From: a virus
Taxonomy: Duplodnaviria > Caudoviricetes
Direction: 5' to 3' (one strand)
Length of the DNA: 55,173 bases
IMG/VR virus record: IMGVR_UViG_3300048837_000354
Span: 1 to 55,173 of that record
Of the stretch, positions 3,259 through 55,173 are shown piece by piece; the first letter of the stretch is position 1; each line of letters begins with the position of its first letter. The notes under the pieces are model-generated. The model was not told the origin of the DNA and made no database searches. It was given only the letters and a program-made list of their open reading frames with translations. Both the position numbers and the translations under genes were made by a program.

Positions 3259-3270
3259 TGAGGGCTCCTG

Positions 3271-4506
3271 TCAGGCCCAGTTAGCAGCGGTGAAACCTGA
3301 CGGCGGCGTACCCGTGGTGCTGCCGGCATCTACGTGCAGCGCAACTTGACGACCAGATGGCCCACTGGTGGAAATCCAACCCACCGGGTATATCGCTCCG
3401 GAGCCGCTGAGAGTGACCGTCGGGCTAGTGCCTGCGGCCGGATCACCGCCACCCGCCCACGCCTGCCCATTCTGGCGAATCCAGACCTTGCGCGTGCTCA
3501 CATCGACCGCGAACTCGATGTTGACCGGGTCGTTGGTGATCGTGCCCGGAAGCGTGCCGACGCTTCCGGCATTGTGGAACATAGAACCGTTGGGGCAACC
3601 AACTTCGACACCCATGTTGTCGTAGCCAGGGTAGTTGTTGCTGTTGCGGAGATCGGAGGTCTCGTCGGCGACGCCCGCGCCCGCGACCGATCCCGAACCA
3701 TTCCAGTCTACGGACATGGAGAAGTAGCACAGCCCGGCACAAGGCTTGAGGGCGCGGGCGTTTGCGTAGTTGCCGATACTGGCGAACGACTCGACCGCGT
3801 TGTCAGCGGGGTAGTAGCACGCCAGCGTGCAGTAGTACGGGTCGAGCACCTGAACGTCCGGGTCTATCTCGGGGAAGCCGGCAGTGAATCCCGATGCCGC
3901 CGAGTAGTCATGCTCCGCCGGGTCCGTCCGCAGGCGGACAGCGCCTCCCGAAGCAGAATTGCCGTAAGGGTTCGCAGCAAGACACATCGGGATGTTTGGC
4001 GAGAAGGTGATCATGGCTCCTGTTCCTGCTGCCGGATCGCCGGAGATCGCCGTGCCGTTCTTAGCGAACCACGCCTTGCCGGCGTCGTAGTCGATGTGCA
4101 TACCAACGACATCGCCGGTCGTGTAGGGAGTCGGCGGGGTCCAAGAGTTAATCGCGGACCCTAGGTGGAACGCGCGCACTTGACTGCTGTAGTTTCCGAA
4201 CAACGAGAAACTATACATACCTGCGCCAAGGTACGGCGCGATGGCCGCGACTCGCGATGCGAATCCGACACCCAGGCTGTTGACGAAATTCTCGATGACG
4301 AACTCGACGTACCACTTGCCTCGTGCGCGCGCCGTGATCGACCGCAGAGGCGCGACCGCGACTCCGGTGCCCGTAGCTACCTTGTCAGAGTCGGACAGCG
4401 TGATGCCTGCCGGCTTGTCGGTCGGGCTCCAATACGCGTACGAGCCTCCGGGCCCCGGACCGGGGGCCACGACACCTACTCCTGCGAACATGCCCAGCGG
4501 GATCAC
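3271..4506 (-). CDS. Putative receptor-binding or tail protein with tandem SPRY/ConA-like domains
   Basis: GTG at 4506 overlaps the upstream stop. SPRY-like motifs GKWYVEF and GDVVGMHIDYDAGKAWFAKNG. GDPAAGT occurs twice. Confidence 0.7.
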   Translation of the reverse strand: MIPLGMFAGVGVVAPGPGPGGSYAYWSPTDKPAGITLSDSDKVATGTGVAVAPLRSITARARGKWYVEFVIENFVNSLGVGFASRVAAIAPYLGAGMYSFSLFGNYSSQVRAFHLGSAINSWTPPTPYTTGDVVGMHIDYDAGKAWFAKNGTAISGDPAAGTGAMITFSPNIPMCLAANPYGNSASGGAVRLRTDPAEHDYSAASGFTAGFPEIDPDVQVLDPYYCTLACYYPADNAVESFASIGNYANARALKPCAGLCYFSMSVDWNGSGSVAGAGVADETSDLRNSNNYPGYDNMGVEVGCPNGSMFHNAGSVGTLPGTITNDPVNIEFAVDVSTRKVWIRQNGQAWAGGGDPAAGTSPTVTLSGSGAIYPVGWISTSGPSGRQVALHVDAGSTTGTPPSGFTAANWA

Positions 4507-4969: not shown

Positions 4970-7681
4970 TTAATCCTTGGTAGCGCGAGTGTTACCGCCA
5001 ACGACGATGCGGCGATTGCCGCCAACGACGATGCGGGTGTCGTGAGGTTCTACCACGTAGTTGAATTCCGCCACGGCCGCTTGCCAGCTAAGCAGGCCGT
5101 CGCGTTCGCTTTCTACTTCGACTCTTGCGACGCCATCGCCGCCCAACGTGAATGGTGTCCCCGACGTGCCGACGATGCCGAGTTCTTCGGCCTCGAAAAC
5201 GTCGTCGAGGTAGTATCGCAGGTTGTAGACGGTCCCATCTTCCGGGCCAACGTCGCTGTCACCTTCGGGGACCAACTGGTCTGCCTGCAGCAAGCGGTCG
5301 CGGTGCGCCCAGGTCACGGTAAGTTCGCCCTGCGCGCTGGCCGGATAAGCGGCGTCGGTGTCGACGGCGTCGGTGATGCGCAGCTTGCCCGGCGGGTACG
5401 GCCGCGCTTGCCGCGAGTCCATCTCCACCAGTACGGTCGGGGCCGAAGCCTCGGCAAGCTGATCCGCGCCTGTGCGAGTGAGCGCCTTGGCTTGGATTTC
5501 TTCGCCGGTCGCATACTCTTTGTTGTCGGTGCCGTACCAGTCGCCGATGAACCAAATGCGCTCACCGTCCGCATGGTCTTTCGGCGTGGTGTCGCCGCAG
5601 CCGCGAGCCAGCGTCATCGTATCCGCGTCGGTGTCGATGGCATCGACGCGAACGATCTCGTCGCCCCAGAGCGCCCAGGTGCCCAAGACCACGTTCTCAA
5701 GCTGGACACCATTGGTGTACGCGATCACGGTCTCCGGCACGTCGAACAGGGGCGACGCCGCCAGTAGAGCAGAAGGCGTCCAGTCGGCGTTGCCTGAGAC
5801 CTCGAAGGGGTTGCCCGAGATAGCCGTTGCCAAGCCGTAGTTGATGCTGCCGGCAGGGCGCACGGCACCGACTTGCAGGTACGCCGAATCTTCGGTAAGC
5901 GCATCACGGTCCGCAGACGAAAGCGCCGACGCCAACTCCACGTACGGGGACTCGATGGCGATGGTCTCCGGCGACGCGATAGCCCCGCCGTTCGGCGGAT
6001 CATCCAGGCTGTCTTGCGGCGTGACGAAGACGGCGTCGGCAAGCGAGATCACGTCCTGCATCGCGCTGATCTGGATCGCGCCATTGGCGAAGTTGCCGAA
6101 GTTGATCTCGCTGACGATGCACACCATGTCCGCGAATCCGCGCTTGGGTGCCATCAACCGGAAGTAGCGACCGGGGCGACGCAGCGACAGCGCGCGTCGA
6201 TTGGCGAGAATTTGGAACCGCCAGTAAGGGGACGCCCCCGCACGCAAGTCGCGGTCGGCCACGCGCAGGGCCAACGGCTCGTACGGAATCTCGTAGTATT
6301 CGCGCACTTCGGGGATGACGCCGCCCGCGCTCTCGATAGCCCCGAGGGACTGTACAGGCGTGGTGACGCGAGACTCAACCTTCTCCGGGTCGTACCAGGC
6401 CACCGACAGGTGATTGATCGCGCCGGTAAGGTCGTTAGCCTCGGCCCTGAACTCGTAGATGTCATCATCGGTGATGATCGGGAGGTCGTCGAGTATGTAG
6501 TCGCCGCGCAGCATGTCGATGTAATACTCGCCATCGAGCACGTCCTGCGACACGTTCCAACCGACGACGTTGCAGATGCGTTGCTGGAACTGCTCTGCAC
6601 TCTCTCCGCCGCGCCAGGTGGTGCAGAGTCCGAAGCCTTCGCTGTACGCCTGGTCCGCCGCTGCCTCGAAGCTGGCCTCGTTGATCCGACCGACGGGTTC
6701 GCCCATGCCGCCGTTCTCTTTGCGCGACGTGATCGAGTCGTAAAGGATGTGCGCCGGATTGATGCCGATCAGTTCGTTCGACAGCGTACCCGCCGTACGG
6801 AGTTCAGCCGTGCAGGTAAACGTGTTAGGCCGTGCATCGTCGATCATGGCGACGTAGCACTTCGTGGTGACCGCCGGCTCGCTGGTGCCTCGATCATACG
6901 TCTGCGACGGAAGCCCATCGAAGATGGGGCCGATCAGGTCGGACCGCCCCAGTGCGAAGAGCAGCGCATCTAGCGCCGACTGGTCGGCCGGAAGACCGTA
7001 CCAGCCGGAGTCCCACACGGGGGCTCCGTCGACCGAGAAGATGTGGCGGCGCGGATAGGTGGAGTCTTCGTACGTCTCGGGCAGCGGCAGAGTGACGAAC
7101 AGCAAGAACGGGTGGCCGTCGAAGTCTCCCCAGTCGAAGACGAAGAACGAGTTGTCGTATTCCTGCAACGACGGGACAGACGCACCACCGTTTGCGCCAC
7201 CGTTCTGGCCGATGTAAAGGCTGTCGTCACCAGGCGTTCCGCTCAGCGTGATCGCCGCCTTCTCGGGATACCAACACACGTCATCGTCCCAACCTTTCAG
7301 GATGCGACGGAACTTCCACGACATCGCTTTCGGGTACGGGTTTCCCGCGCCGATCTTCGCGCCGCGCAGGATGCCAGTGAGCTTGCCGCGATTGGCCGAC
7401 TGCAGCGCGCCGAAGATGCCGGCGAGATAGCTGCTCGGCATCTGGGTCTGCTCGCCCATCAAAAGCTCGAAGTCACCGACGACGCCGCCTTCCGCGCTTT
7501 CGCCGCCATAGAGATCGGGCTTGTTGACGGAGATGATCCCGCTAGTCTCCTGCACGCCTTTCCAGATTACGCGGTCTCCGCCTCGCCATTCGAGCATCGC
7601 GTCGACCGGGCCCTTCGCGAATCCGAAGTGCGCGACAAGCTTGTACCAGTAGCTTACGGTTACTTTCTTAGAGCTTCCCAT
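4970..7681 (-). CDS. Tail tip / central tail hub protein
   Basis: About 903 aa from MGSSKKVTV; NPAHILYD and ARGCGDT motifs; synteny after the DUF2163-like gene. Confidence 0.8.
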   Translation of the reverse strand: MGSSKKVTVSYWYKLVAHFGFAKGPVDAMLEWRGGDRVIWKGVQETSGIISVNKPDLYGGESAEGGVVGDFELLMGEQTQMPSSYLAGIFGALQSANRGKLTGILRGAKIGAGNPYPKAMSWKFRRILKGWDDDVCWYPEKAAITLSGTPGDDSLYIGQNGGANGGASVPSLQEYDNSFFVFDWGDFDGHPFLLFVTLPLPETYEDSTYPRRHIFSVDGAPVWDSGWYGLPADQSALDALLFALGRSDLIGPIFDGLPSQTYDRGTSEPAVTTKCYVAMIDDARPNTFTCTAELRTAGTLSNELIGINPAHILYDSITSRKENGGMGEPVGRINEASFEAAADQAYSEGFGLCTTWRGGESAEQFQQRICNVVGWNVSQDVLDGEYYIDMLRGDYILDDLPIITDDDIYEFRAEANDLTGAINHLSVAWYDPEKVESRVTTPVQSLGAIESAGGVIPEVREYYEIPYEPLALRVADRDLRAGASPYWRFQILANRRALSLRRPGRYFRLMAPKRGFADMVCIVSEINFGNFANGAIQISAMQDVISLADAVFVTPQDSLDDPPNGGAIASPETIAIESPYVELASALSSADRDALTEDSAYLQVGAVRPAGSINYGLATAISGNPFEVSGNADWTPSALLAASPLFDVPETVIAYTNGVQLENVVLGTWALWGDEIVRVDAIDTDADTMTLARGCGDTTPKDHADGERIWFIGDWYGTDNKEYATGEEIQAKALTRTGADQLAEASAPTVLVEMDSRQARPYPPGKLRITDAVDTDAAYPASAQGELTVTWAHRDRLLQADQLVPEGDSDVGPEDGTVYNLRYYLDDVFEAEELGIVGTSGTPFTLGGDGVARVEVESERDGLLSWQAAVAEFNYVVEPHDTRIVVGGNRRIVVGGNTRATKD

Positions 7682-28964: not shown

Positions 28965-29281
28965 GGGCGTACGTCCATCCAGGCTTTGATCACTTCGGCG
29001 AAGAGCGGCGGGACGATGGCATTACCGTAGGCGCGCAGTCTTCCCACTCGGGAGGGAACCCCATCAGCCAGCAGACGAACTCCGAGGCCAACGCGCCGGG
29101 CTTTTCCGTCGTGGCCGAGAATCCAGCGGGAGTCATCCCACATTCCGCGAGCAATTCCGGAACCGTGACTATCTGCGTCGCCAATGTCCACTGGCCGCGC
29201 GGATGCAGCCTCTCCGCTTCTTTCACTTGTGCCGCTACGCTCGCTGCACTCACCGACGCATTGTGAGTCGGAGTCGCCCAA
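28961..29281 (-). CDS. Methyltransferase C-terminal part (motif X) in another frame
   Basis: DGVPSRVGRLRAYGNAIVP motif; stop overlaps the DNA polymerase start. Confidence 0.7.
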   Translation of the reverse strand: MGDSDSQCVGECSERSGTSERSGEAASARPVDIGDADSHGSGIARGMWDDSRWILGHDGKARRVGLGVRLLADGVPSRVGRLRAYGNAIVPPLFAEVIKAWMDVRP

Positions 29282-29901
29282 AGTGCCGCGTAGACCTGTC
29301 GCGGCAACTGATCCACTCTGGTCCGCCCTGCTTCTCTCTCTCCCGAGACATGCCCGGCGTGTCTTTGTAGTCCCGCGCCGACGCCGTCACCCACAACGCA
29401 CTTTCCAGCGGCGAAGGCGATGCGGTCGCGACGGTGAGGCGCGTTGACGGCACAAGCTGGTAGTACGGCCGACCCGCAGGCGTAGCCGATGCCTTCCAGG
29501 TCAGCAAACACTCGATCGAGCCAATTTTTTCTAATCGCTGCTGCAACCTGCTCTCCCATGCAAACGGCGGGTCGGCAAGCGGCGATAAGGCGGAAGTAGT
29601 GTGGCCATAGGTCCCGTTCGTCGTCGGTGCCGAGTTGCTTGCCAGCGACGCTATACGGCTGGCACGGCGCACTGCCCGTCCAGAGTTCGCGACCATCGGG
29701 CCAGCCGGCGAGACGTGCAGCAAGACTCCACCCAGCAATGCCAGCGAAGAAGTGGCACTGTGTGAAGAACTCAAGGTCTTCTGGTTGAACTTCCGTGATG
29801 CTGCGTTCATCCACTTCTCCGTCAGGAATGTGACCGGCTTTGATCAAGTTGCGAATCCACTGCGCGGCGTACGGCTCAAATTCGTTGTAGTAGTTCGACA
29901 T
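28990..29901 (-). CDS. C5 cytosine DNA methyltransferase: motifs I-VIII fused to the beta-type motif IX region (frameshifted state)
   Basis: FFAGIAG, PCQPYS, EQV and HRRDR, then switches to RVDQLPRQ...WATPT...EFVCWLMGFP. Confidence 0.85.
   Translation of the reverse strand: MSNYYNEFEPYAAQWIRNLIKAGHIPDGEVDERSITEVQPEDLEFFTQCHFFAGIAGWSLAARLAGWPDGRELWTGSAPCQPYSVAGKQLGTDDERDLWPHYFRLIAACRPAVCMGEQVAAAIRKNWLDRVFADLEGIGYACGSAVLPACAVNAPHRRDRIAFAAGKCVVGDGVGAGLQRHAGHVSGEREAGRTRVDQLPRQVYAALWATPTHNASVSAASVAAQVKEAERLHPRGQWTLATQIVTVPELLAECGMTPAGFSATTEKPGALASEFVCWLMGFPPEWEDCAPTVMPSSRRSSPK
29250..29810 (-). CDS. Overlapping alternative-frame (beta-type) methyltransferase subunit, N-terminal part
   Basis: ESRLQQRL...LTWKASATPAGRP...RDYKD, recalled as typical of alternative-frame partners of phage C5 MTases; start uncertain. 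Confidence 0.55.
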   Translation of the reverse strand: MNAASRKFNQKTLSSSHSATSSLALLGGVLLHVSPAGPMVANSGRAVRRASRIASLASNSAPTTNGTYGHTTSALSPLADPPFAWESRLQQRLEKIGSIECLLTWKASATPAGRPYYQLVPSTRLTVATASPSPLESALWVTASARDYKDTPGMSREREKQGGPEWISCRDRSTRHFGRLRLTMRR

Positions 29902-30044: not shown

Positions 30045-30632
30045 TCAGTTGTCCCAGTCCGAGTCGTCGCCCGCGCCTTCCTTGAACTCGGGCTCGACGG
30101 TCTCGAAGCCTTCGGCCGTGTCCGGACGCTCGGTGCCGAAGCGCGTGCCCTCGCCGACGTACTGCACGGCCAGGAGGTTCGCGTTGACCTTCTTGCCCCA
30201 GGAGTTGTCCTGCTTCCACGGCTTGATCTTGATGTTGACGATGCAGCCGGCGTAGAGGATGCCGTCCTTGGGGTTGATCGGCGACATATCACGGTTGAAA
30301 ACGTCGGGCTTGTTGTCGACGTTCTCGGACGCCGAGATCACCCAGTGGCCTTCCTGCTCGGCCTTGCCGCTGTCGTTGCCGTTGCGCAGGAACAGGTTGG
30401 CCGTGCCGACCTTCGCCTTGAAGTATTCCATCTGCAGTTCGCTCAGACGGCCCTTGAGGTACTTGATCGCCTCGGCGTGCGTGGTCTCGGGCAACAGGCC
30501 CTTGCACGAATACTTCAACTTTTCCTTCTCCGGGTTCTTCGCCCACGGCTCGAAGACGTGCGGGTAGGAGAGGACGACGTTCTTGACGATGATGCTGCCG
30601 TCTTCGCAGACGGTGATGTTCTTGATGGACAT
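30045..30632 (-). CDS. DUF2815 family ssDNA-binding protein
   Basis: LSYPHVFEP, LRNGND, YAGC and LLAVQY motifs; acidic tail. Confidence 0.85.
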   Translation of the reverse strand: MSIKNITVCEDGSIIVKNVVLSYPHVFEPWAKNPEKEKLKYSCKGLLPETTHAEAIKYLKGRLSELQMEYFKAKVGTANLFLRNGNDSGKAEQEGHWVISASENVDNKPDVFNRDMSPINPKDGILYAGCIVNIKIKPWKQDNSWGKKVNANLLAVQYVGEGTRFGTERPDTAEGFETVEPEFKEGAGDDSDWDN

Positions 30633-31945: not shown

Positions 31946-32179
31946 TCAGACCAACATCAGCGCGCTTTGCACGAAGTTCAACTTCATGTTCGGCGTGAAC
32001 TCGACAGTGACGTGGACGCCTTTCCTCGACAGCGTCATCGCAACCACTTCGCCGGGCTTGACCTTCTGCACGAGTCGCATGTCTGACGCCCACTTCGGCG
32101 CGCGTTCGTCCTGCGTCGCAATGTATTCCTCGGTGACGCGCACTTTGTCGCCGAGTTCAAAGCGGAAATCTGCGTACAT
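31946..32179 (-). CDS. Hypothetical protein
   Basis: 77 aa, RBS GGAG. Confidence 0.7.
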   Translation of the reverse strand: MYADFRFELGDKVRVTEEYIATQDERAPKWASDMRLVQKVKPGEVVAMTLSRKGVHVTVEFTPNMKLNFVQSALMLV

Positions 32180-32236
32180 GGGTTGCTCCGATCAGTTCGG
32201 TCTGGCGTCTCGCAAAACGGCACACCGAAGCCTCTG

Positions 32237-33203: not shown

Positions 33204-35762
33204 ATGTCGCAAGAAGATTTCACCCCACGGGCGCTTGCCCTCGTAGCCAACGGCTACCGCATCATTCCGCTCAACGGGAAAGTCCCCAACGCCGGCAAAG
33301 ACTGGCAAGACATCGTCGCTACTGACGCGACGGTGCATGCGTGGGGTCGCGCCATGCCGCACGCCAACATCGGCATCCTCACCGAACTCACGCCCGCCGT
33401 CGACATCGACATCTACGACGCCGCCGTAGCGGAGCGCATGGAGGCGTGGATCGTCGCCAACGTCGAAGGCGCGGCTCTCGCACCACGACGTGTCGGCCAA
33501 GCGCCCAAGCGCCTGCTGCTCTTCCGCGCAGACGAGAATTTCCGCAAGGTGGACGCAGGCGTGTTCGTCGACCCCCAGGGTGTGAAGCACAAGGTCGAAA
33601 TCCTGTCCAAGGGGCAGCAGTTCGCCGCGTTCGGCATCCACCCGGATACGAAGCAGCCGTTCCGCTGGACCTCGATGGAAGACCCGCTCGATCTCCCGTT
33701 CGACGAACTGCCGGTCCTGACCGTCGAAGACGCGCAGCGCATCGCCGAACAGTTCCGCGCGATCTGCGAAGAACTCGGATGGAAGCGCAAGGGCAAGTCG
33801 ACCAGTGTTGCGTTGTCGCGCCCCGCGCAAGGCGAGGTCAACGGTCTTGAAGGTCACAAGCGCAAGCTCAAGACCACGACCGAGGAAATCCGCGACGCGC
33901 TGAACGTGCTCGATCCCGACACCGGCTACGACTTCTGGCGCGAAGTCGGCATGGCGCTGCATCACCAGTTCGACGGCAGCGACGAGGGCCTTGAGTTGTG
34001 GGACGAGTGGAGCCAGTCGTCGATCAGCTACAGCAACGACGAGATCGTTGAGAAGTGGCCCTCGTTCTCGATCACGCCGGACGGCCGCGCGCCGGTCACG
34101 CTGGCGACGGTCTTCAAGTACGCCAACGACGCGAAGCACCAAGAAGCCGAGGAAGACTTCGAGCGTGTGCTCAATGTCGTGCGCACGTGTACGGACCAGA
34201 GCCAGTTGTTCAAGGACGTGGCGAAGCAGGTAGCCAAGGCGATCACGCAAGAATTCCAGTTCGACGTGGCTGCGAAGAAAATGCAGGACCGCGCGAAAGA
34301 ACTGACCGGCGTGTCGCCGCGCATCGACACCGTGCGCAAGGCCATCTTCAACTACCGCACGCGCGCCGAAGAGACTGGCAACCGCACCCCCGATTGGTGC
34401 GTGGACTGGGTCTACATCGAGAACGGCGACCGCTTTTTCAGCCTGGAGTCGAAGCAGGAACTCACTGAAAAGGGTTTCAACGCCAAGTTCGACCGCTTCG
34501 TGATCTCCGACGAAGACCGCGCCCTCGGCGTGGCATCGCCCGACGCGCACGCGGCGCAGAAGGCCCTCAACGTCTACACCATCCCCACCGTCTACTCGAC
34601 CGTCTACCTGCCGGGCCATCCGCGCATCGTGGAGGTTCTGGGCCGCACGCGGGCGAACACCTACGACGAGACCTCGATTCCCGAGAGCAAGCCCGTGGAG
34701 ACTGACGAAGAGCACGAGGCCGTCCGCCTGGTGCAGCAGCACTTCGAGATCACGTTCCCCGACAAGCGGGAGCGGACTATCGTGATGGACTACCTCGCCT
34801 ACAACATCCAGTTCCCCACCGAGAAGATCGCGTGGGCGCTGTTGATCCAGGGCGCGGAAGGCACCGGCAAGACGTGGATTCTCAAGTTCATGCAGATGAT
34901 GCTCGGCCCGCAGAACGTGTCGCCGCTGTCAGCCGCCGCGCTGCAGGAGCCCACCAACAACGCGTGGGCCGAAGGCGCGAAGATGCTCTTCATCGAGGAA
35001 ATCCGCCTGCACGGCTCGAATCGCTACGAAGTGCTCGACAAGCTCAAAGAGCCGGTGTCGAACGAAGACATCACCATCCGCCGCATGAACCGTGACCGCT
35101 ACACGATCCCCAACGTGACCAACTACGGCGCGTTCACGAACTACTGGGACGCACTGCCGGTCTCGAAGAACAACCGGCGCTACTTCGTCGTTGCAACCCA
35201 ACTGCAGAGCGAGGAAGACGTGATTGCGTTCAACGAACGCTACCCGGACTACTTCACCGACCTGTTCAACGCGATCTACGCACACCCGGCCGCGCTGCGT
35301 GGCTGGATGATGGCGCGCAAGCTGTCGCACTGGTTTGAGCCGAAGAAGCCGGCCCCGGACACCGTCGCCCGCGCGAAGATGGCCGACATGTCGGAAGTGT
35401 CCGAAGAGAACGACGTGCTCACGACGCTGTTGGAGGATTCCACGTCCCCCCTGGTGTGCGACCAGTTGCTCTCGCTCGACGCGCTGGAAGACGCGGCCAA
35501 CAGTGCCGGCGAGATGCTGCCGAAGGGACGCCCGCTGCTGGTGATGCTTGCCAAGGCCGGCTTCCACATGATCGGCCGGATGTCGCTGCAGGAAGGCGGA
35601 CGGAAGACGCGCGTGTTCACGCGCAAGCCCGGCCTATTCGACATGGGCGACACCGACAAGCGGGTTGTCCAGGTGCGACAACTGGTCGCCGGGCACGCGC
35701 TCACGAAGAAGCCGCTGCACCTGGGCTTCGACAAGATCGAGGATGAAGACGAATGGAACTGA
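33204..35762 (+). CDS. Primase-polymerase / primase-helicase
   Basis: Prim-Pol N-terminus (NIGI, VDID, GIHPDT), PriCT-2-like WREVGMALH, P-loop GAEGTGKT. Confidence 0.9.
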   Translation: MSQEDFTPRALALVANGYRIIPLNGKVPNAGKDWQDIVATDATVHAWGRAMPHANIGILTELTPAVDIDIYDAAVAERMEAWIVANVEGAALAPRRVGQAPKRLLLFRADENFRKVDAGVFVDPQGVKHKVEILSKGQQFAAFGIHPDTKQPFRWTSMEDPLDLPFDELPVLTVEDAQRIAEQFRAICEELGWKRKGKSTSVALSRPAQGEVNGLEGHKRKLKTTTEEIRDALNVLDPDTGYDFWREVGMALHHQFDGSDEGLELWDEWSQSSISYSNDEIVEKWPSFSITPDGRAPVTLATVFKYANDAKHQEAEEDFERVLNVVRTCTDQSQLFKDVAKQVAKAITQEFQFDVAAKKMQDRAKELTGVSPRIDTVRKAIFNYRTRAEETGNRTPDWCVDWVYIENGDRFFSLESKQELTEKGFNAKFDRFVISDEDRALGVASPDAHAAQKALNVYTIPTVYSTVYLPGHPRIVEVLGRTRANTYDETSIPESKPVETDEEHEAVRLVQQHFEITFPDKRERTIVMDYLAYNIQFPTEKIAWALLIQGAEGTGKTWILKFMQMMLGPQNVSPLSAAALQEPTNNAWAEGAKMLFIEEIRLHGSNRYEVLDKLKEPVSNEDITIRRMNRDRYTIPNVTNYGAFTNYWDALPVSKNNRRYFVVATQLQSEEDVIAFNERYPDYFTDLFNAIYAHPAALRGWMMARKLSHWFEPKKPAPDTVARAKMADMSEVSEENDVLTTLLEDSTSPLVCDQLLSLDALEDAANSAGEMLPKGRPLLVMLAKAGFHMIGRMSLQEGGRKTRVFTRKPGLFDMGDTDKRVVQVRQLVAGHALTKKPLHLGFDKIEDEDEWN

Positions 35763-36301
35763 CCAAGGTAGGTCCCGGCCACTTCTACGCGGGTGTTGGT
35801 TCGCGCGAGACGCCGGAAGACGTGCGGCGGCTGATGACGAAGATCGCGCGCTCGCTGGCGGAAGCCGGATGGCTCCTGCGCTCCGGCGGTCAGCCGAAGG
35901 GTGCAGACTCCGCGTTCGAGGAAGGGGCTTACACGCTCAGCGGACCGTTCAAGCTCACTAGCACCACGAAAGAAATCTGGTTGCCGTGGCTGGGCGCTTT
36001 CGGTCACACGTCGCAACTGACGCCGACGAAAGAGCACTACGAAGCCGCAGCGCACTACCACCCGAACTGGAACGCGTGCGACAAGTACGCGCGTGATCTG
36101 CACGCCCGCAACGCGCCCGTCGTTCTCGGCGCTGATCTACGCACGCCGGTCAAGTTCGTCGTGTGCTGGACGAAGGACGGTCTAGGCGGTGGTGGCACCG
36201 GCCAGGCGATCCGCATCGCCCGCGCCAACAAGATTCCCGTCTACGATCTCGCGATCCCCGGCACCGGGAAGCTGCTCAAGGCTTTCGTGTCGTCGTCGTG
36301 A
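35753..36301 (+). CDS. SLOG / DprA-Smf-like protein
   Basis: YAGVGSRETP, LRSGG..GADSAFE, HARN and GGTGQAIRIA motifs. Confidence 0.75.
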   Translation: MELTKVGPGHFYAGVGSRETPEDVRRLMTKIARSLAEAGWLLRSGGQPKGADSAFEEGAYTLSGPFKLTSTTKEIWLPWLGAFGHTSQLTPTKEHYEAAAHYHPNWNACDKYARDLHARNAPVVLGADLRTPVKFVVCWTKDGLGGGGTGQAIRIARANKIPVYDLAIPGTGKLLKAFVSSS

Positions 36302-36612
36302 AACGGCGCAGGCGCATCGGAGAGGTCGTATGTCGGTGTGGGCGCTACAAGTTCCCACATCGCATGCTCGGAGGCGCGTGTAACGGTGGCGCGTTCGTCG
36401 ACGCCTACTTCGAGACCAACATCTACGGCGACTGCCGCGACTGTCCGCTGATCGAGACCGATGACGAGGGCGTCGTGCGCTGCCAGGTGTTGAACGGGCA
36501 AGAGCCCGCGCTGCAGTGCCCCGCGTTGATCGAGTACGTGCGCTTCGAGGGCATCAAGCTCTACGGCGAGAACAAACCGCCAGAGCGCGGACCGTTGCGG
36601 TTCCGCCGATAA
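36298..36612 (+). CDS. Cys-rich hypothetical protein
   Basis: GTG overlapping the upstream stop; CRC...PHR...C and CRDC motifs. Confidence 0.7.
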   Translation: MKRRRRIGEVVCRCGRYKFPHRMLGGACNGGAFVDAYFETNIYGDCRDCPLIETDDEGVVRCQVLNGQEPALQCPALIEYVRFEGIKLYGENKPPERGPLRFRR

Positions 36613-36649
36613 AAGAAGGGCCGCCGAGGATTGCCCTGGGCGGCCCTTC
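36611..36649 (-). terminator. Rho-independent terminator of the RNA cluster
   Basis: 11-bp stem GAAGGGCCGCC/GGCGGCCCTTC followed by TTTT on the minus strand. Confidence 0.75.
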
Positions 36650-36686
36650 AAGCTCCCTGACCGGAGTGTGCCCCGTGAAGGCCACG
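36611..36686 (-). ncRNA. Candidate small RNA antisense to the shared RBS motif
   Basis: TTGACA at 36720-36715 with weak -10 (TGAGAT), 5' hairpin, CTCCGGTCAGGGA segment, terminator. Confidence 0.4.
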
Positions 36687-36726
36687 GTGCTATCTCACAT
36701 GCTTTCGCCGGAGATGTCAAACAGGC

Positions 36727-36807
36727 CGCAGCAACGCGCCTCTCCATGTCCGTCAGCCACGTAGGCCCCAGGCTTGGGGTAACGATCCCCGCTGACGCGT
36801 TGCTGCG
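36727..36807 (-). ncRNA. Candidate structured RNA
   Basis: 12-bp perfect closing stem plus inner stems; directly downstream of the tRNA-like element. Confidence 0.4.
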
Positions 36808-36813
36808 ATTTCG

Positions 36814-36883
36814 TGGGCGGCGGCGGGGTTTGAACCCGCATCTACGACTTTGGGTCGACGGCCTTAGCTTAGACGACACCACC
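36814..36883 (-). tRNA. tRNA-like element with aberrant anticodon arm
   Basis: Acceptor GGTGGTG/CGCCGCC, D stem GTCT/AGGC, T arm GCGGG-TTCAAAC-CCCGC; anticodon arm irregular. Confidence 0.55.
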
Positions 36884-36889
36884 CGCATT

Positions 36890-36966
36890 TGGCGACCAGG
36901 GTAGGAGTTGAACCTACAACCGGCGGCTTTGGAGGCCGCTGCTCTGCCGGATTGAGCTACCTAGCC
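36890..36966 (-). tRNA. trnW: tRNA-Trp (CCA)
   Basis: Full cloverleaf: anticodon arm GCGGC-CTCCAAA-GCCGC, T arm GTAGG-TTCAACT-CCTAC, encoded 3' GCCA. Confidence 0.92.
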
Positions 36967-37151
36967 GAATAAGTCGGAGCGGGTATCCTCCGCTCCTGCG
37001 CCCGCGCTTTTCACGAGGCTCTGGGTTGGTCTCTAAGGCGGCCTGCCAGCGCGCCCTTATCCGTCCCTGCGCTGCGCCGCGGCCTTGCCGTTCGCTTGCG
37101 CCCTTTCAGCACCTACCAAGGCGTACATCCCTGGGCCCGCCGTTCGAGTGC

Positions 37152-37181
37152 AGATTACGACGGCTCCGCAACCCGTGTCAA
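37152..37181 (-). promoter_or_regulatory. Sigma70-like promoter for the RNA cluster
   Basis: TTGACA-N18-TAATCT. Confidence 0.6.
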
Positions 37182-37801
37182 CTCCACTCGCTTTCCGGGT
37201 CTACGGCCTTGTTCAACGCGTCGATCACCGCCTTCGGCCTGGTAGGCGAGAAGGAGAAGCCGTCGGGCATCGGCCATGCTTCGCTCTCAGGGCGCGGTGG
37301 TTCCTTCGGCTTGTTCTTGCTGCCAGCCGGGCGACCGGGGCCACGCTTCACGCCTGCCTCGAAAGCCGCACGCTTGCGATCCGGAGAGCGGTGCGAACAG
37401 TAAACCGCTTCGGGTTCATCGTTGAACATCTGGCGGATCAACGCCTCGACGCGTTTGTCGTTGAGGTCCCGCACGAGTTCGGCCTCGACCTGGTCGATGA
37501 CCGCGCCGTACTTGGCGAAGTTCTCGCGGATGATCTGGACCGGGAGTAGCGCAGCGTCGAGCGCGTATTCCGCGTAGAGGTCCTGCACCTTCTGAGATCG
37601 CTGGTAGACCATGCCCCGCGCGCGATTGGAAAGGCCGTAGACCGCTGACCCCGCCCGGCCCCACTTGAAGGCGAGGAACGACGTGCGGACGCCGTTGAGG
37701 ACTTGCTTGAGCGTCAGCAAGCCCAGGAGCCGGTCGGCGGCCTGCTGTTGGCGCTGCGTGCCTAGAAGCTGGTTTGCGTAGTACAGACGGGGCTTGGTCA
37801 C
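37178..37801 (-). CDS. Hypothetical protein with AT-hook-like motif
   Basis: RBS GGAGG before GTG; KRGPGRPAGSKNKPK. Confidence 0.75.
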   Translation of the reverse strand: MTKPRLYYANQLLGTQRQQQAADRLLGLLTLKQVLNGVRTSFLAFKWGRAGSAVYGLSNRARGMVYQRSQKVQDLYAEYALDAALLPVQIIRENFAKYGAVIDQVEAELVRDLNDKRVEALIRQMFNDEPEAVYCSHRSPDRKRAAFEAGVKRGPGRPAGSKNKPKEPPRPESEAWPMPDGFSFSPTRPKAVIDALNKAVDPESEWS

Positions 37802-37852
37802 GGGGTGTTCCTCCAAAAAGTCGTCAGCGAGAAAAGCGCTCGGCGGAGCCAG

Positions 37853-37880
37853 AATATAGGGGGTCGAGGCAAATTGTCAA
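37853..37880 (-). promoter_or_regulatory. Sigma70-like promoter
   Basis: TTGACA-N16-TATATT. Confidence 0.6.
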
Positions 37881-38248
37881 ATCTAGTTTGCCTCGATGTT
37901 GCCTAAGCCTTGCCTTGACTGTTGCCTTGACTCTCTAAGTGTTTGATTTATATGTGTAAATTATAACTAATATATCTAGAACAACGAAACATTACTTGAT
38001 ACGCACATACGGGAGGAAGGTATATAACCTATCTGCATGACTTTATGTATATGTATTCACTTTCGGAACATAAGATCGCACGGGCATATTCTTCCAGAGC
38101 CGCCGCCAGGATATTGCCATTTGCTTTGACTGAATTATTATTTTGAAAATTCTTCAACCCGCTCAGTGGGTTGGCGACTCAATGCAAGAGTCGAGGCAAT
38201 GCTTAGGCAATAGTGAGGCAACAATATTTTTCAAACTTGCCTTGAGTC
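37864..38248. repeat. AT-rich core flanked by TTGCCT/AGGCAA repeats, with an IHF consensus (origin or cosB-like)
   Basis: Four TTGCCT copies at 37888-37931, three AGGCAA copies at 38191-38221; AATCAAACACTTA (minus, 37936-37948) fits WATCAANNNNTTR. Confidence 0.7.
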
Positions 38249-38316
38249 GGTATTTCTGCCCCCCGCTGCAGGAGGGCCCGTCGACCTCGCGCGGCCGGAG
38301 AGCCTTTGCCGGCGCG

Positions 38317-38328
38317 GCTCTGAGCCTA
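38317..38328 (-). other. Candidate cos (cohesive end) site
   Basis: TAGGCTCAGAGC matches 8/12 of the Chi overhang as recalled (GGTGCGCAGAGC); lambda-type terminase; compositional boundary here. Confidence 0.4.
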
Positions 38329-38825
38329 GGTCGGATTATCCGGGGATCGGGGTGGGTCAGGTGTAGATACGCGGGCATACGAGCTAGGGGCGGCCCAGAA
38401 GCCAGGAAAATTGCGGGAAACCGGGCTCAGCGCCACCCCCGGACACCACCCCCCAGGCCAGAGGGACCCATTCTCACTCACGCATGACACAAAGACAGGC
38501 ACCCCGCGCACCCCTTCCCCGCTCACCAGGTGACCGCATGACATAGGCACAGGCACACGCATGCACGCCCATGCACGCCCACGCATAGGGGCAGGCAAGG
38601 CACACGGGCACACGCTAGGGCAGGCACACAGGCACACGCAGCCAACCCGCCATACAGGCAGGAAGGGGCGCGGGCTGGGGTAGGGGAGGCTTACGGATTC
38701 AAGGCCAATGCGCGCACGCAATGCGCACGCGTAACGCGCCCGCGCGTATCACAGGACGTTGCCCCCATTCAAGGGCCTAGGCATAGCCACTAGGCGGCCC
38801 ACGTAGGGCAGGGGAGCGGACAAAC

Positions 38826-38851
38826 AAAAACCCCGCCACGTGGGCGGGGTT
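38826..38851 (-). terminator. Terminator of the leftward early operon
   Basis: AACCCCGCC-CACGT-GGCGGGGTT followed by TTTGTTT. Confidence 0.8.
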
Positions 38852-38898
38852 GAAGGGTAGCGCATGGCCTAGGCGTCTAGGCGGGCTCGATCCACGGG

Positions 38899-39060
38899 CT
38901 AGGCCGTCTCGCTTGAGCCTGCCGCCACGATCACCACAAGTAGGAAGATCACCAGCAAGGCCGCGCCCGGCATGTCCCCCTTGGACAAGGTCACCACGAT
39001 AGGCGGGCCTAGCAGGATCACGGCAGACACACGGAACAGGAAGACCATAAAGGCGTTCAT
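38899..39060 (-). CDS. Small membrane protein
   Basis: 53 aa, two hydrophobic segments, RBS GGAGG, ATGA overlap. Confidence 0.65.
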   Translation of the reverse strand: MNAFMVFLFRVSAVILLGPPIVVTLSKGDMPGAALLVIFLLVVIVAAGSSETA

Positions 39061-39278
39061 CGCTTGGCCTCCAAGCGGCTCAGTATCCAATTCTTCATCG
39101 CGCGTTGTGTGTTGAAGTCGCCCCCATCCACGAGGCCAGACCACTGCATGCGTTGGATGTAGTTATTGAACGCCTTGATCCCGATAGGGCCAACGCCTTC
39201 AACGTCAAAGGTGCCGTTAAGCCATGTGCCGCGCGATTGCTTGACTACGTGGGTAGCGAATTCGTCGGGAGTCATCAC
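39057..39278 (-). CDS. Hypothetical early protein
   Basis: Tightly packed ORF in operon. Confidence 0.7.
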   Translation of the reverse strand: MMTPDEFATHVVKQSRGTWLNGTFDVEGVGPIGIKAFNNYIQRMQWSGLVDGGDFNTQRAMKNWILSRLEAKR

Positions 39279-39505
39279 TTACCCCCGACCAGGGCCGCGC
39301 GCACACCGTTGACCACGTTTTGCGCGGCCCTGAACTTGTCAAAGGTCAGGTCTGACAGCGGCCAATAATCGGCAAGGGCCGCGCACGGCAGAAAAACGAT
39401 TCGGTAATTCTGCCCCATGACGCCGCGATTGCAGGCGACATAGACAACGCGCGCGGCTTCGCGCTTGCCGATTTTCTTAGGTGTCTTCTTAGTGGCCATG
39501 TTCAC
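39275..39505 (-). CDS. Hypothetical early protein
   Basis: RBS CCCTGACCGGAGG; overlapping start/stop. Confidence 0.7.
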   Translation of the reverse strand: MNMATKKTPKKIGKREAARVVYVACNRGVMGQNYRIVFLPCAALADYWPLSDLTFDKFRAAQNVVNGVRAALVGGK

Positions 39506-39711
39506 TTGCCTCCGGTCAGGGGGATAGTCGTGATAGGGACGTTCGATTGCGCGAACTTCTCACGCTCGATTGAACGCGCGCCTGCATGCAGTGCGCGTGC
39601 CAGGCTGCGCGCTTCCTTGGCGGTCAGGTATTGCGTATCACCATCGCAGCCAAGGAAAGCAACGGCCACTGAGTCACAGAAACGGTAGGTGTAAACGCTT
39701 GTGGCTTTCAT
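39502..39711 (-). CDS. Hypothetical early protein
   Basis: RBS GGAG; overlapping start/stop. Confidence 0.7.
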   Translation of the reverse strand: MKATSVYTYRFCDSVAVAFLGCDGDTQYLTAKEARSLARALHAGARSIEREKFAQSNVPITTIPLTGGK

Positions 39712-40097
39712 GCTTCATTCTCCAGGTTAACGAACATCACCACGCAATCACCACGCGGCCGGAATTCCAACGCGTCCCCGAAGTCATCCGAGCGACCCTT
39801 GACTCCGGTATAGCCTGCCAACGCTTTCGCGCGGCGCATGATTTCCCGATCACTGGCCTTCTTAGGCGCGCGGAACGCGTAACGCCTCACCCACGCGTAG
39901 TTAGCCTCCCCGCCGTAGGTGTCGGTAACTTCAACCCGCCAGAGGAAAGAATCCTCCAGGGCGCGTTGCATGCGTGCGGCCATCCGCTGCGCGTTGGTAC
40001 GCGTGGAACAGGTCGCGACACGCTCCTTTATGTCTCCCGTGTGAATCGAGCGAGTGACAACGTCGGGACCAAAAGCGGAATAACGATAATCAGCCAT
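39708..40097 (-). CDS. Hypothetical early protein
   Basis: RBS GAGGA; VEVTDTYGGEANYAWVRR. Confidence 0.75.
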   Translation of the reverse strand: MADYRYSAFGPDVVTRSIHTGDIKERVATCSTRTNAQRMAARMQRALEDSFLWRVEVTDTYGGEANYAWVRRYAFRAPKKASDREIMRRAKALAGYTGVKGRSDDFGDALEFRPRGDCVVMFVNLENEA

Positions 40098-40111
40098 TGC
40101 TTGATCCTCGA

Positions 40112-40846
40112 TTAGTCGCGGACGCGGATGCGGGCCGCGCCTTGCGTGATGAACTTTCGATTGTTGGCGCGCGAAGGCTTGCCATTGCGCCATGCCGTGA
40201 CCAGGCCGAAGCGTGAGGCAAGTTCGTGTGCCATGTCTTCGCCATATTCGGCCGCGATGCTTTCGGGCGTGTCGTTATCCGAGTAGCAAACCCCGCCAAG
40301 GTATTCCGCTTCCCCGTCTACCGTCTCCCCGTCCACGTCGCACAATTCAACCTTGAGGCAGTGATAGGCCCATTCATCGCGAACCCAGCCGCGCACGTGC
40401 TCGAAGTCCAGGCGGGCCGCTTCGGCCGCAATCTCGCCTTTCGTGGGCTCCCGCATGAATTCGGAAACCGGGCGCGGAATGAACTTGCCTCCGGCATTGT
40501 TGCGCGTGCGCGCGTCCAAGAACATCGCCTTTTCTGCGATACGCTCCCGCAGTGCGGCTAGTTTGTCATCCGACAAACCCCATTCCGCGCGCGCGGTCTT
40601 CGTCGCGGCCTGAACGTCATACGCGTAGATCGTCGCGTAGCGTTCACCGCTTGAAAAGGCAATCTCCCCCGGACCTTTGCCCATGTTGCGATAGTGCCCG
40701 TTGCTTGAGTAGCCCGCGCGGCAAAGTTCACGAACGGGCCCGTGCCCGTCTTCCTCTTCCCAGGGTGCCCCGTGGTCCGTGTCCTGTTCCGAAGTCAGGA
40801 GGAAGGTCAAGCCAAGATAGGTAAACGTATGGTCTTGCATGGTCAT
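40112..40846 (-). CDS. Hypothetical early protein
   Basis: 244 aa from MTMQDH, RBS GGAG. Confidence 0.75.
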   Translation of the reverse strand: MTMQDHTFTYLGLTFLLTSEQDTDHGAPWEEEDGHGPVRELCRAGYSSNGHYRNMGKGPGEIAFSSGERYATIYAYDVQAATKTARAEWGLSDDKLAALRERIAEKAMFLDARTRNNAGGKFIPRPVSEFMREPTKGEIAAEAARLDFEHVRGWVRDEWAYHCLKVELCDVDGETVDGEAEYLGGVCYSDNDTPESIAAEYGEDMAHELASRFGLVTAWRNGKPSRANNRKFITQGAARIRVRD

Positions 40847-41006: not shown

Positions 41007-41969
41007 TCACGCCTCCTTGTATTCAGGCAGGCCGAACGTGGGCGCGATGCGCGCAAGCTCGGAGAATTCCAGCACGTGACAGCCCACGACCAAACCGCCG
41101 TCCGCGCGAATCTCCCGCAAGGTGAAGTCACCCACGGAAGCGAAGCCGGAGCCGCGTTCCGTGCTCACGGACTGCAACGCTTCACCCTTGCGCCTGCAAT
41201 TGCACGCGGCCTGCCACAAACCAGGCGCAACGGAAACAGGCACGGACGCGCCGCGCGATGTCTCGATCATGCCGCCTTTCACGCGTAGCAGCGTGACCGC
41301 GCCCGCGCGATACGGAAGCGTAACGGCCGCGCCACTGAGCCATGCGGCCTCCTTGGCGGCATAGTCCAAGGATTCCAGGCGCGTACGTTCCGCGCGTTCG
41401 GCCTTGCGCGCGGCCGATTCTTTCGCTCGCTCCTTGCTTGCCTTGTCGGCCTTGGCTTTCGCTTCGGCGAGTAGCGCGGGGGTTACCGGCTCGATCACGG
41501 GCGCGGGAAGATTGAAAGTCTGCGCGTAAACGCGCGCACCGTGGGCGAGTGTTTCCGCTACATCCAGCAGCCACGCGGCATTACTGCGCGCGCGGGAGGC
41601 TTTCACGATTGCAGCATCGCGACGCGTGAGCATGTCGGCGACGTTGCGCGCGTGGGCGTCCGCCTCCTCCGCCAGCACGTCGGGCACGTTGAAAATGTAA
41701 ACGTTGTCCGGAATGGCATGCCTTGCGTAGTTCAAATGTTTGGCGGTCGCGTTGGAATAGGTGTCCGTAGTGAACAGGCACACATGCATGGTCCGGAACG
41801 GGCCGGGAGCGGCTCCCACGTTGGCATAAACGCCTTCCGGCATCATGTGTGCGATTGGGAAATGCGGCCCGTAGGAATAGATTACAGGGCCTTCAAAGTA
41901 GAAGTTAGAACCGCGTGCCGCGTTGCGGGATTGTGCGGCCCAAAGGTGGGCGACGTTGGTATTGTTCAT
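41007..41969 (-). CDS. Hypothetical early protein
   Basis: 320 aa, RBS CCTGACCGGAG. Confidence 0.85.
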   Translation of the reverse strand: MNNTNVAHLWAAQSRNAARGSNFYFEGPVIYSYGPHFPIAHMMPEGVYANVGAAPGPFRTMHVCLFTTDTYSNATAKHLNYARHAIPDNVYIFNVPDVLAEEADAHARNVADMLTRRDAAIVKASRARSNAAWLLDVAETLAHGARVYAQTFNLPAPVIEPVTPALLAEAKAKADKASKERAKESAARKAERAERTRLESLDYAAKEAAWLSGAAVTLPYRAGAVTLLRVKGGMIETSRGASVPVSVAPGLWQAACNCRRKGEALQSVSTERGSGFASVGDFTLREIRADGGLVVGCHVLEFSELARIAPTFGLPEYKEA

Positions 41970-41993
41970 TTGTTATTCTCCGGTCAGGAAGGG

Positions 41994-44769: not shown

Positions 44770-44869
44770 GGCACTTGCGCTCAGGCCGCAAACGTGAAAA
44801 TGTTTGACCCTGACGTTTAGGCGATTTTGAAAAGGCCGTACCACCCTAATTCCCTGACCGGAGATTTCC

Positions 44870-48459: not shown

Positions 48460-49065
48460 ATGCGCATCGTTGATCGAAAGGAAGTCGGAGCCGCCCTTGA
48501 GGCGTTCTGCGACAAGTTCGAGACCTACAAGGAGGCCGCGAAGAAGCTGGGCATCACCCTGTCCCAGTTGTCGGCCGCCCGCAACAAGCCAAAGTCGGTG
48601 GTGCCGGCGAAGGCGCTCAAGAAGCTGGGCTTCGAGTTCAAGGCCGTGTACCTCGCCAAGGACCTCCCGCCGGCCAAGAAACACGTACCGAGCGCGATCA
48701 CCCGCGCACTGGTAGCCGCTTCAAAGGCTAAGCCGAGGAAGGCCAAAGGCCCCACGGCGCGTCACGGGCCAAACGCAGACGACGCAGTGCGCGATGCCCT
48801 CAAGGCTGCGAAGCCTCGTGTTCGCAAGCCGAAACCCGCGCCGCCGATGCGCGACATCGCAGGCGGCATGACTCGCGATCCGTACCTCGAAGGCATCGAC
48901 AACCGCAACGCCGTCGACAACTCGGTGATCGAGTCCGTGGTCGACGTGTCGGTCGATTCGCCTGACATGGCCGATCTGCGCGACAACCTGTACGCCGACA
49001 ACGAGCCCGAGAACCCGGACATCTACATCCCCGATGACAACGGCGACAACATCACCATCAACTGA
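48460..49065 (+). CDS. HTH-like protein with basic middle and acidic tail
   Basis: YKEAAKKLGITLSQLSAARN; RBS GAGGT. Confidence 0.75.
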   Translation: MRIVDRKEVGAALEAFCDKFETYKEAAKKLGITLSQLSAARNKPKSVVPAKALKKLGFEFKAVYLAKDLPPAKKHVPSAITRALVAASKAKPRKAKGPTARHGPNADDAVRDALKAAKPRVRKPKPAPPMRDIAGGMTRDPYLEGIDNRNAVDNSVIESVVDVSVDSPDMADLRDNLYADNEPENPDIYIPDDNGDNITIN

Positions 49066-49077
49066 CCGGAGCAACCC

Positions 49078-49296
49078 ATGCACTTGAACAGAGGTCTACT
49101 CGCTGCTGCGCTGACGATGGTTATCGGCGCGACGGCAGGAGTCAACGAGCCCGTCGAAGAGCGTCGGCGCAGTTCGTTCCCCCGCTACACCGGACGCACC
49201 AAGGGCCTGACGCCCGAACAGGTGAAGGCCAAGCGCGCGAACCGCAAGAAGAACAAGGCCGCCGGCAAGTCCCGCGTCAAGAACAAGGGGCGCTGA
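49078..49296 (+). CDS. Small basic protein
   Basis: RBS CTGACCGGAG; Lys/Arg-rich C-terminus. Confidence 0.7.
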   Translation: MHLNRGLLAAALTMVIGATAGVNEPVEERRRSSFPRYTGRTKGLTPEQVKAKRANRKKNKAAGKSRVKNKGR

Positions 49297-54946: not shown

Positions 54947-55173
54947 TCAGTTGGTGTCCAGCCAGAGGTCGCCGACGGCGGGACTGCCGGGCGGCGTTGT
55001 TCCTACGTGAATCATCGTACCGTCCGCGCCTGCGTCGCCTTGATCGCCTTTGAGCGACAAAAGCCACGCCGCCTCACTGCCGACGAAGCCGTTGTTGACC
55101 GCGATCTGGTAGGCGCTGAGCCCATCCACGCCGTCCTCGCCGTCCGCGCCTGCGTCGCCTTGATCGCCTTTGA
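54947..55173 (-). CDS. 3' part of collagen-repeat structural protein
   Basis: KGDQGDAGADG twice; ends PAVGDLWLDTN. Confidence 0.8.
   Translation of the reverse strand, partial: KGDQGDAGADGEDGVDGLSAYQIAVNNGFVGSEAAWLLSLKGDQGDAGADGTMIHVGTTPPGSPAVGDLWLDTN

Follow-up and report, generated by a model that had tools for sequence, protein, structure and literature searches.

The c4 antisense RNA is excised from a longer transcript, the phage RNAs sar and OOP each overlap their single target gene, and the E. coli tRNA 3' external transcribed spacer is an sRNA derived from the 3' end of a transcription unit. RegA and RegB of T4 are proteins that shut off a set of phage mRNAs by recognising SD regions. 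According to the parts of PMC12197685 available to us, c4 of phages P1 and P7 is a short RNA with loops complementary to the sequence round an RBS and blocks translation; sar of P22 and OOP of lambda are antisense RNAs of 68-77 nt ending at an intrinsic terminator; by pairing with the ant mRNA, sar blocks its synthesis; and the dicB operon of the Qin prophage yields DicF through termination and processing. The known RBS-blocking phage RNAs (c4 and sar) are directed at one gene or operon each.

Start-associated sequences (SAS) have been described from cluster K mycobacteriophages and cluster EF Microbacterium phages. In the available parts of these reports, the SAS is an asymmetric 13-nt sequence with an SD core, found 3-9 nt ahead of some genes, which mostly start with ATG, and conserved past the stretch that pairs with the rRNA (Pope et al. 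2011, PMC3203893; Jacobs-Sera et al. 2020, PMC7302621). In four K1 phages, one SAS copy was reported in 2011 to be reversed and away from a gene start (PMC3203893, available part). Passages of papers from 2011, 2020, 2024 and 2025 still call the role of the SAS undefined, and an antisense partner is not proposed in the available parts of these four papers (PMC3203893, PMC7302621, PMC11373665, PMC12699233). The word "antisense" has no occurrence in the available text of PMC12699233 and one, unrelated, in that of PMC11373665. The phage literature that we found on SAS concerns actinophages only, and in this sense its occurrence in similar form in a Salvo/Nazgul-like phage is new.

The window analysed here, 55,173 bp with a GC content of 62.7%, comprises an entire virus record. 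Assembled as a complete circle of 55 kb, the virus is a Salvo/Nazgul-like (Casjensviridae-like) siphovirus, and its gene order agrees with that of Xylella phage Salvo (Table 1). Circular assembly accounts for the direct terminal repeat as an overlap, and the ends of the record are therefore not the physical genome ends. In Salvo, the gap equivalent to the noncoding convergent gap beyond the primase operon contains the cos site, and by synteny the physical genome end may be located in this gap. Based on likeness to the ends of Salvo and AH2, a single 12-mer in the gap was considered as a cos site and rejected; this sequence, GCCAGCGCGCCC at 37045-37056, has 2 of 12 mismatches to the annotated Salvo cos overhang, which is not significant. 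An AT-rich island at 37850-38150, with GC of ~0.35-0.45 at every codon position, contains divergent near-consensus promoters at 37880 (minus) and 38114 (plus), and may function as an origin, in packaging or in early control.

Table 1. Coordinates of genes, motif copies and RNA-level features in the 55,173-bp window.
Feature	Position	Strand	Description
Direct terminal repeat, 127 bp	1-127 and 55047-55173		Overlap left by circular assembly
Structural and replication genes	241-32758	minus	Gene map
Motif, one-mismatch variant GGCCTGACAGGAG	3265-3277	minus	6 nt before ATG 3258 (240 aa); TGA is the stop of the upstream gene
Motif, one-mismatch variant GAACTGATCGGAG	32186-32198	minus	6 nt before ATG 32179 (77 aa)
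Short operon: small gene, primase, DprA-like gene, phrog_5016 gene	ends 36612	plus	PHROG/Pfam scans
Primase-polymerase, 852 aa	33204-35762	plus	
DprA-like gene	35753-36301	plus	
phrog_5016 gene	ends 36612	plus	Stop TAA 36610-36612
Noncoding convergent gap	36613-37177		Beyond primase operon
Intrinsic terminator	36609-36649	minus	11-bp GC-rich stem and 3 inner pairs, then TTTTAT
Fifth motif copy TCCCTGACCGGAG	36654-36666	plus	13/13 match to family consensus
Anti-motif CTCCGGTCAGGGA	36666-36654	minus	Read from sequence
5-bp hairpin CCGUG/CACGG	36673-36687	minus	Its plus strand holds GTG 36675
29-codon ORF	36675-36764	plus	GTG start, 8 nt after GGAG
Candidate promoter	36691-36720	minus	TTGACA 36720-36715 (perfect -35), weak -10
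14-bp inverted repeat round branched 53-nt insert	36727-36807	minus	Between tRNA-like gene and TTGACA 36720
Aberrant tRNA-like gene	36813-36884	minus	Rfam tRNA, 34.2 bits
tRNA-Trp (CCA)	36890-36966	minus	Rfam, ARAGORN
207-aa ORF	37178-37801	minus	No family match; would head a unit running into the tRNAs
Sigma70-like promoter TTGACA-16-TATATT	37853-37880	minus	11/12 positions
Leftward genes	~44400 down to 37178	minus	
Motif CCCCTGACCGGAG	39510-39522	minus	4 nt before GTG 39505, 10 nt before ATG 39499 (74-76 aa)
Motif TTCCTGACCGGAG	41978-41990	minus	8 nt before ATG 41969 (320 aa, phrog_7247)
Rightward genes	from 44431	plus	
Motif TCCCTGACCGGAG	44851-44863	plus	6 nt before ATG 44870 (78 aa); 13/13 complement of candidate RNA
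Motif CAACTGACCGGAG	49059-49071	plus	6 nt before ATG 49078 (72 aa); TGA is the stop of the upstream gene

In total, the exact 10-mer CTGACCGGAG was found in five copies against 0.21 expected, and none of 100 shuffles reached five. As four of the five copies sit 4-10 nt ahead of the starts of real-looking genes, the sequence was taken as a start-associated motif. Its family is real and phage-specific, with the consensus YYCCTGACCGGAG in which GGAG is the SD core. In addition to the one-mismatch variants, where CTGATCGGAG stands ahead of ATG 32179, forms with a 1-base insertion or deletion were seen by eye ahead of 46160, 45847 and 8947, giving by eye a total of ~9 copies including variants, with 3258 and 8947 in the structural arm. 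The conserved CCTGACC located 5' of GGAG has no pairing with the usual 16S 3' end, as reasoned from the standard anti-SD. Use of the TGA in the motif as the stop codon of the upstream gene was considered as a cause of the motif and rejected, being true in 2 of 7 copies examined. At the starts of genes 49078 and 32179, the stretches 49062-49080 (plus) and 32177-32195 (minus) have 19 nt in common, CTGA[C/T]CGGAGCAACCCATG, with one difference, which exceeds the length of the motif.

The SAS of clusters K and EF of the actinophages is the nearest parallel to this motif, which is likewise asymmetric, ~13 nt long and built on an SD core, with spacings of 4-10 nt and ATG starts at 41969, 44870, 49078, 32179 and 3258. 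The sequences themselves are unrelated, the consensus given in the available parts of the SAS reports being GGGATAGGAGCCC in cluster K and GGGAAAGGACCCC in cluster EF (PMC3203893, PMC7302621). The two may also differ in number and location, the SAS being restricted to non-structural genes, with 10-19 copies, and five exact copies, or ~9 with variants, occurring here, two of them in the structural arm. Moreover, the present phage is Salvo-like, with relatives that infect Proteobacteria, and its motif genes are found on both strands.

No close relative was found in collections of phages, viral contigs, metagenome contigs or genome contigs. Among 481 phage records, all below 60% identity, the best match to the primase was 38%, and its kin at this level or below are siphoviruses of Xanthomonas, Xylella, Stenotrophomonas, Burkholderia, Achromobacter, Erythrobacter and Sphingomonas. 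The same query gave 27 loci in viral contigs and 28 in metagenome contigs, with a best identity of 38% in both, and a single locus in genome contigs (38% over 72 residues). Neither the 320-aa motif gene (41969) nor a 24-mer spanning the motif had a match in viral contigs, and the gap DNA had no match among phages by megablast and blastn. CTGAYCGGAG was absent from the whole records of five distant relatives (Salvo, AhaSv, R22L, Carli and AH2), and a crude k-mer test of start association, permissive in GC-rich DNA, showed no clear counterpart in four of these five.

The fifth exact copy of the motif is located in the convergent gap. The exact 10-mer is expected ~0.03 times in noncoding DNA (0.21 scaled to the 7,304 nt counted as noncoding), and the fifth copy was thus taken as a real member of the family. 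Beyond the motif, local alignment showed no similarity between the gap and the target loci. Direct reading of the minus strand recovered every sequence element that the earlier note had listed at its position, namely TTGACA at 36720-36715, the hairpin CCGTG/CACGG at 36687-36673, CTCCGGTCAGGGA at 36666-36654 and the 11-bp terminator. In a minus-strand RNA, the anti-motif, read as CUCCGGUCAGGGA, would stand 3 nt 5' of the terminator stem, which is formed by GAAGGGCCGCC (36649-36639) and GGCGGCCCTTC (36625-36615) and followed by TTTTAT at 36614-36609. On the plus strand, the stem is followed by AAGCTCCC without a T-run. Since the T-run follows the stem on the minus strand only, the site is a canonical intrinsic terminator only for leftward transcription.

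The tRNA-Trp gene and the tRNA-like gene lie 150-300 nt upstream of the anti-motif on the same strand. The latter was called by ARAGORN only at the relaxed setting -ps80, as Leu(CAA), has two anticodon-stem mismatches and no long variable arm, and may be a decayed or unconventional tRNA. In the inverted repeat that follows it, one pair is G-U in the minus-strand RNA and A-C in the plus-strand RNA; the repeat may serve as a processing site, a weak terminator or a DNA site. In searches against Rfam, the two tRNA matches alone reached the gathering threshold in the window, and no family, including C4 antisense RNA, ctRNA_p42d, BjrC68 and RcsR1, did so in the region of the anti-motif. The sub-threshold scores were 22.4 (ctRNA_p42d) against a threshold of 50, 17.2 against 39 and 15.8 against 60 bits, mostly from the terminator hairpin. 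An unstranded 184-nt contig covers 36543-36726 across the hairpin with 0 differences, in one run labelled "RNA? (probably DNA)". In that run contig cover outside 36543-36726 was sparse and the pile-ups at tRNA-Trp came from other organisms, and the contig was counted neither for nor against a minus-strand RNA.

TTGACA occurs in 12 copies genome-wide, of which six wholly and two partly fall in noncoding DNA (13% of the genome), against 2.1 expected. All eight noncoding copies face the direction of the downstream genes and four have a good -10, which is lacking at 36720, 37181 and 30038. The earlier note had placed a promoter for a short minus-strand RNA at TTGACA 36720. The perfect -35 was retained in our analysis, but its -10 fails the promoter scan and this promoter remains a candidate; with a 17-nt spacer the hexamer is TGAGAT, which matches at 3 of 6 positions and lacks A2, and with an 18-nt spacer ending in TG-T it is GAGATA (36696-36691), which lacks T6. 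No promoter was called by the scan at this TTGACA, the -10 being below the standard of the scan. The copy at 37176-37181 (minus) has a weak -10, CGTAAT, at 16-nt spacing, overlaps the stop of the 207-aa ORF ~210 nt before tRNA-Trp, and may be a separate tRNA promoter.

Between the strong promoter at 37880 and position 36649, no terminator-like site was listed by the scan. Since the terminator, the tRNAs and the strong promoter are all leftward, an RNA with CUCCGGUCAGGGA located 5' of the terminator is likely whether or not TTGACA 36720 fires. The claim that the minus strand is transcribed across the anti-motif thus gains from the unit as a whole, and a minus-strand RNA 3' end bearing the anti-motif likely exists. 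The plus strand is probably transcribed across the gap too, and no terminator-like site was listed by the scan on this strand at 36000-40700. As the plus-strand operon is without a terminator of its own, such transcripts may be made here and soak up the antisense RNA as full duplex.

Folding of the 78-nt RNA 36685-36608 predicted three hairpins (-43.1 kcal/mol, z = -5.0), with most of the stability coming from the terminator. The predicted structure includes the CUCC-GGUCAG-GGAG hairpin that had been proposed earlier, and the seed is partly tied up in a 4-bp hairpin within the RNA. The candidate RNA is complementary over 12-13 nt to the start regions of three genes, and the duplex covers the SD in each. 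The 13-mer had been described as the exact complement of the RBS of 44870, and TCCCTGACCGGAG is indeed found in identical form 6 nt before ATG 44870; the partial matches that had been noted at other RBSs were likewise reproduced, the 13-mers before 39505/39499 and before 41969 each differing from TCCCTGACCGGAG at 1 of 13 positions and the 10-mer core standing also before ATG 49078. The C-to-T variants at the 32179 and 41969 targets would, as had been suggested, yield G-U pairs.

In order to compare pairing among genes, a set of 63 start regions was used, consisting of 65 greedy ORF calls less six judged spurious (antisense or low-signal) and with four added by hand (44870, 39711, 40193 and 36298). 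Ranking by RNA.duplexfold was uninformative, with a median of -24 kcal/mol for start regions and controls alike, and cofold ddG was used instead. For the 78-nt RNA, ddG was -23.7 kcal/mol at 39499 and -19.5 kcal/mol at both 41969 and 44870, all beyond the minimum (-14.0) of 264 control windows inside genes. The start region of 49078, with a ddG of -12.5, is within the control range and ranked under two start regions without the motif. The "many early genes" that the earlier note had proposed as targets thereby shrink to three start regions beyond all controls (44870, 41969 and 39499/39505). Among random 78-nt windows, 6 of 120 had a best ddG of -23.7 or lower and 5 of 120 a third-best of -19.5 or lower. 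Complementarity to at least four start regions over at least 9 nt was observed at two places in the genome (start-region antisense strands aside), one of which is this gap. The other, 6381-6394 on the plus strand, is inside a gene and looks like chance complementarity.

A unit of similar appearance is present at 30038-29924 on the minus strand, between a gene at 30045-30632 and a C-5 cytosine DNA methylase gene (28990-29901, PF00145, 4.8e-17). TTGACA-17-TAGGGT is followed there by a predicted RNA of ~89 nt, in which three hairpins and a CCCUCCCU stretch occur, and by a terminator of 12 bp and its T-run. We rejected this unit as another anti-SD RNA, its best start-region ddG being -11.6, weaker than the random-window mean of -17.1.

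Repression of the motif genes by an RNA carrying the anti-motif is plausible and is the single most likely reading of the locus, with a probability that we put at about 0.35. From what is seen in the sequence (the anatomy of the gap, the orientation of terminator and tRNAs, the complementarity) we infer that such an RNA exists, is stable and represses. The 13-mer would then be an extra member of the family, inverted relative to the sole transcription unit clearly ending there. This unit would run from promoter 37880 through the 207-aa ORF, tRNA-Trp, the tRNA-like gene, the structured spacer and the anti-motif to the terminator at 36649-36609, and the RNA might be transcribed directly from TTGACA 36720, with a length of ~75 nt, or be released as a trailer on tRNA processing. 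The anti-motif would form 12-13 bp with the SD regions of 44870, 41969 and 39499/39505, and more weakly with those of 49078, 32179 and the looser variants. Pairing would hide the SD and thus lower translation.

Compared with the described systems, the candidate resembles the 3'-end-derived sRNAs in its layout, with tRNA-Trp, the tRNA-like gene, the anti-motif and the terminator following in this order on the minus strand, and with the pairing region just 5' of the parent terminator, as in DicF and the tRNA spacer. Those sRNAs are released by processing or from an internal promoter, which for the present candidate is a prediction, and they act on host mRNAs or sRNAs, whereas the targets predicted here are start regions of the phage itself. 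In contrast to c4, which acts on one operon (ant), several unlinked start regions share the target sequence, and unlike the targets of sar and OOP these are located 3-12 kb away. If true, the candidate would be a trans-acting phage antisense RNA against RBSs, with several targets and derived from the tail of a tRNA unit. It would define a small post-transcriptional regulon within a virus, made up of unlinked genes that share an SD extension, and would provide a concrete candidate for the partner of start-associated sequences.

The plus-strand copy could instead serve as RBS for a 29-codon gene (36675-36764) on primase-operon transcripts that continue beyond the hairpin, a reading that we consider somewhat unlikely when taken by itself. 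All four of the other exact copies, as well as the looser variants, are sense-oriented and located 4-10 nt before start codons, and the fifth copy is itself followed, 8 nt downstream, by a GTG that opens 29 codons. The hairpin has no T-run on the plus strand, where no later terminator-like site is found either. However, a start codon at 4-10 nt that opens at least 29 codons is found at 17% of random positions, and among the motif genes a GTG start would be exceptional, the others having ATG. In the plus-strand RNA, folding places the SD and the GTG both inside small hairpins. The 29-codon peptide has no Pfam or PHROG match, and the ORF runs antisense into the trailer of the tRNA unit. No frame-specific GC3 signal was observed at 36600-36800, where the ORF is very short.

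The fifth copy is unlikely to be a remnant without function, stemming from a gene start that was duplicated or displaced and stayed behind in a rearrangement of the tRNA cassette or its neighbours. Mosaicism, which is frequent in phage gaps close to the packaging site, counts for such an origin, as do letters shared past the motif by the plus-strand copy and the start region of 39499 (GTGAA and GGCCAC, 36675-36686), as in a partial duplicate. These extra letters were, however, not recovered by local alignment and may be due to chance, and the copy agrees with the consensus throughout (13/13), which several working copies do not. Taken jointly, the two plus-strand readings, a small gene and a relic, outweigh the anti-motif RNA.

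The motif might also be the site of a protein or another factor, such as a translational repressor or nuclease acting in the manner of T4 RegA/RegB, with the gap copy serving as a decoy or autoregulatory site on either strand. We regard this as decidedly unlikely. Conservation does reach 6-9 nt 5' of GGAG, by our reasoning beyond the pairing with the 16S rRNA 3' end, and the TGA coincides with an upstream stop in only two of the seven copies examined. The available part of the SAS literature allows either RNA or protein as the binder (PMC3203893). Against it, no candidate protein was found: the motif genes and their neighbours had no family matches, and Pfam and PHROG scans of the neighbouring genes gave no RegA or RegB homologue. 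The T4 regulators are proteins, in contrast to the RNA proposed here.

A single 13-mer match taken alone is unremarkable. The window contains 86 other 10-mers with at least five copies and ~207 exact repeat blocks of at least 13 nt (terminal overlap left out), random 220-nt windows aligned locally to the gap scored up to 28 against 26 for the 13-mer, and the 13-mer with at most two mismatches gave 4 matches against 2.04 expected, with 14 of 100 shuffles reaching 4. A purely chance origin of the 10-13-mer, in a genome rich in GC, is nevertheless very improbable even with the repeat blocks, the abundant 10-mers and the alignment null on its side, given how rarely the 10-mer is expected in the whole window and in its noncoding DNA.

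The antisense reading of the gap may be extended to the SAS. In our count, the K1 phages Anaya and Adephagia each have 16 forward copies and 1 reverse copy of the SAS. The reverse copy is located at 59870-59882 in Anaya, in the long gap between gp96 and gp97, and at 58682-58694 in Adephagia, in the likewise long gap between gp92 and gp93. Late transcription of Adephagia appears to start between genes 92 and 93, according to the available part of a 2024 report (PMC11373665); a scan found no SigA-like promoter in this gap. Judging from orientation, rightward transcripts crossing the reverse SAS in Anaya and Adephagia would carry an anti-SAS. SAS could then be operators for a phage-made "anti-SAS" RNA, in which one inverted copy, within a transcript belonging to another expression class, pairs with the SD regions of all motif mRNAs and shuts them off together, a generalisation that we consider quite unlikely. 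In the present phage the tail of the tRNA unit may be the carrier, and in the K1 phages the gap with the reverse copy. If true, an anti-SAS RNA would be one explanation, across unrelated phages, for a puzzle that has been standing since 2011. The gp92/gp93 gap of Adephagia also contains a plus-strand terminator and four tandem GCCCGCCGAC-like repeats.
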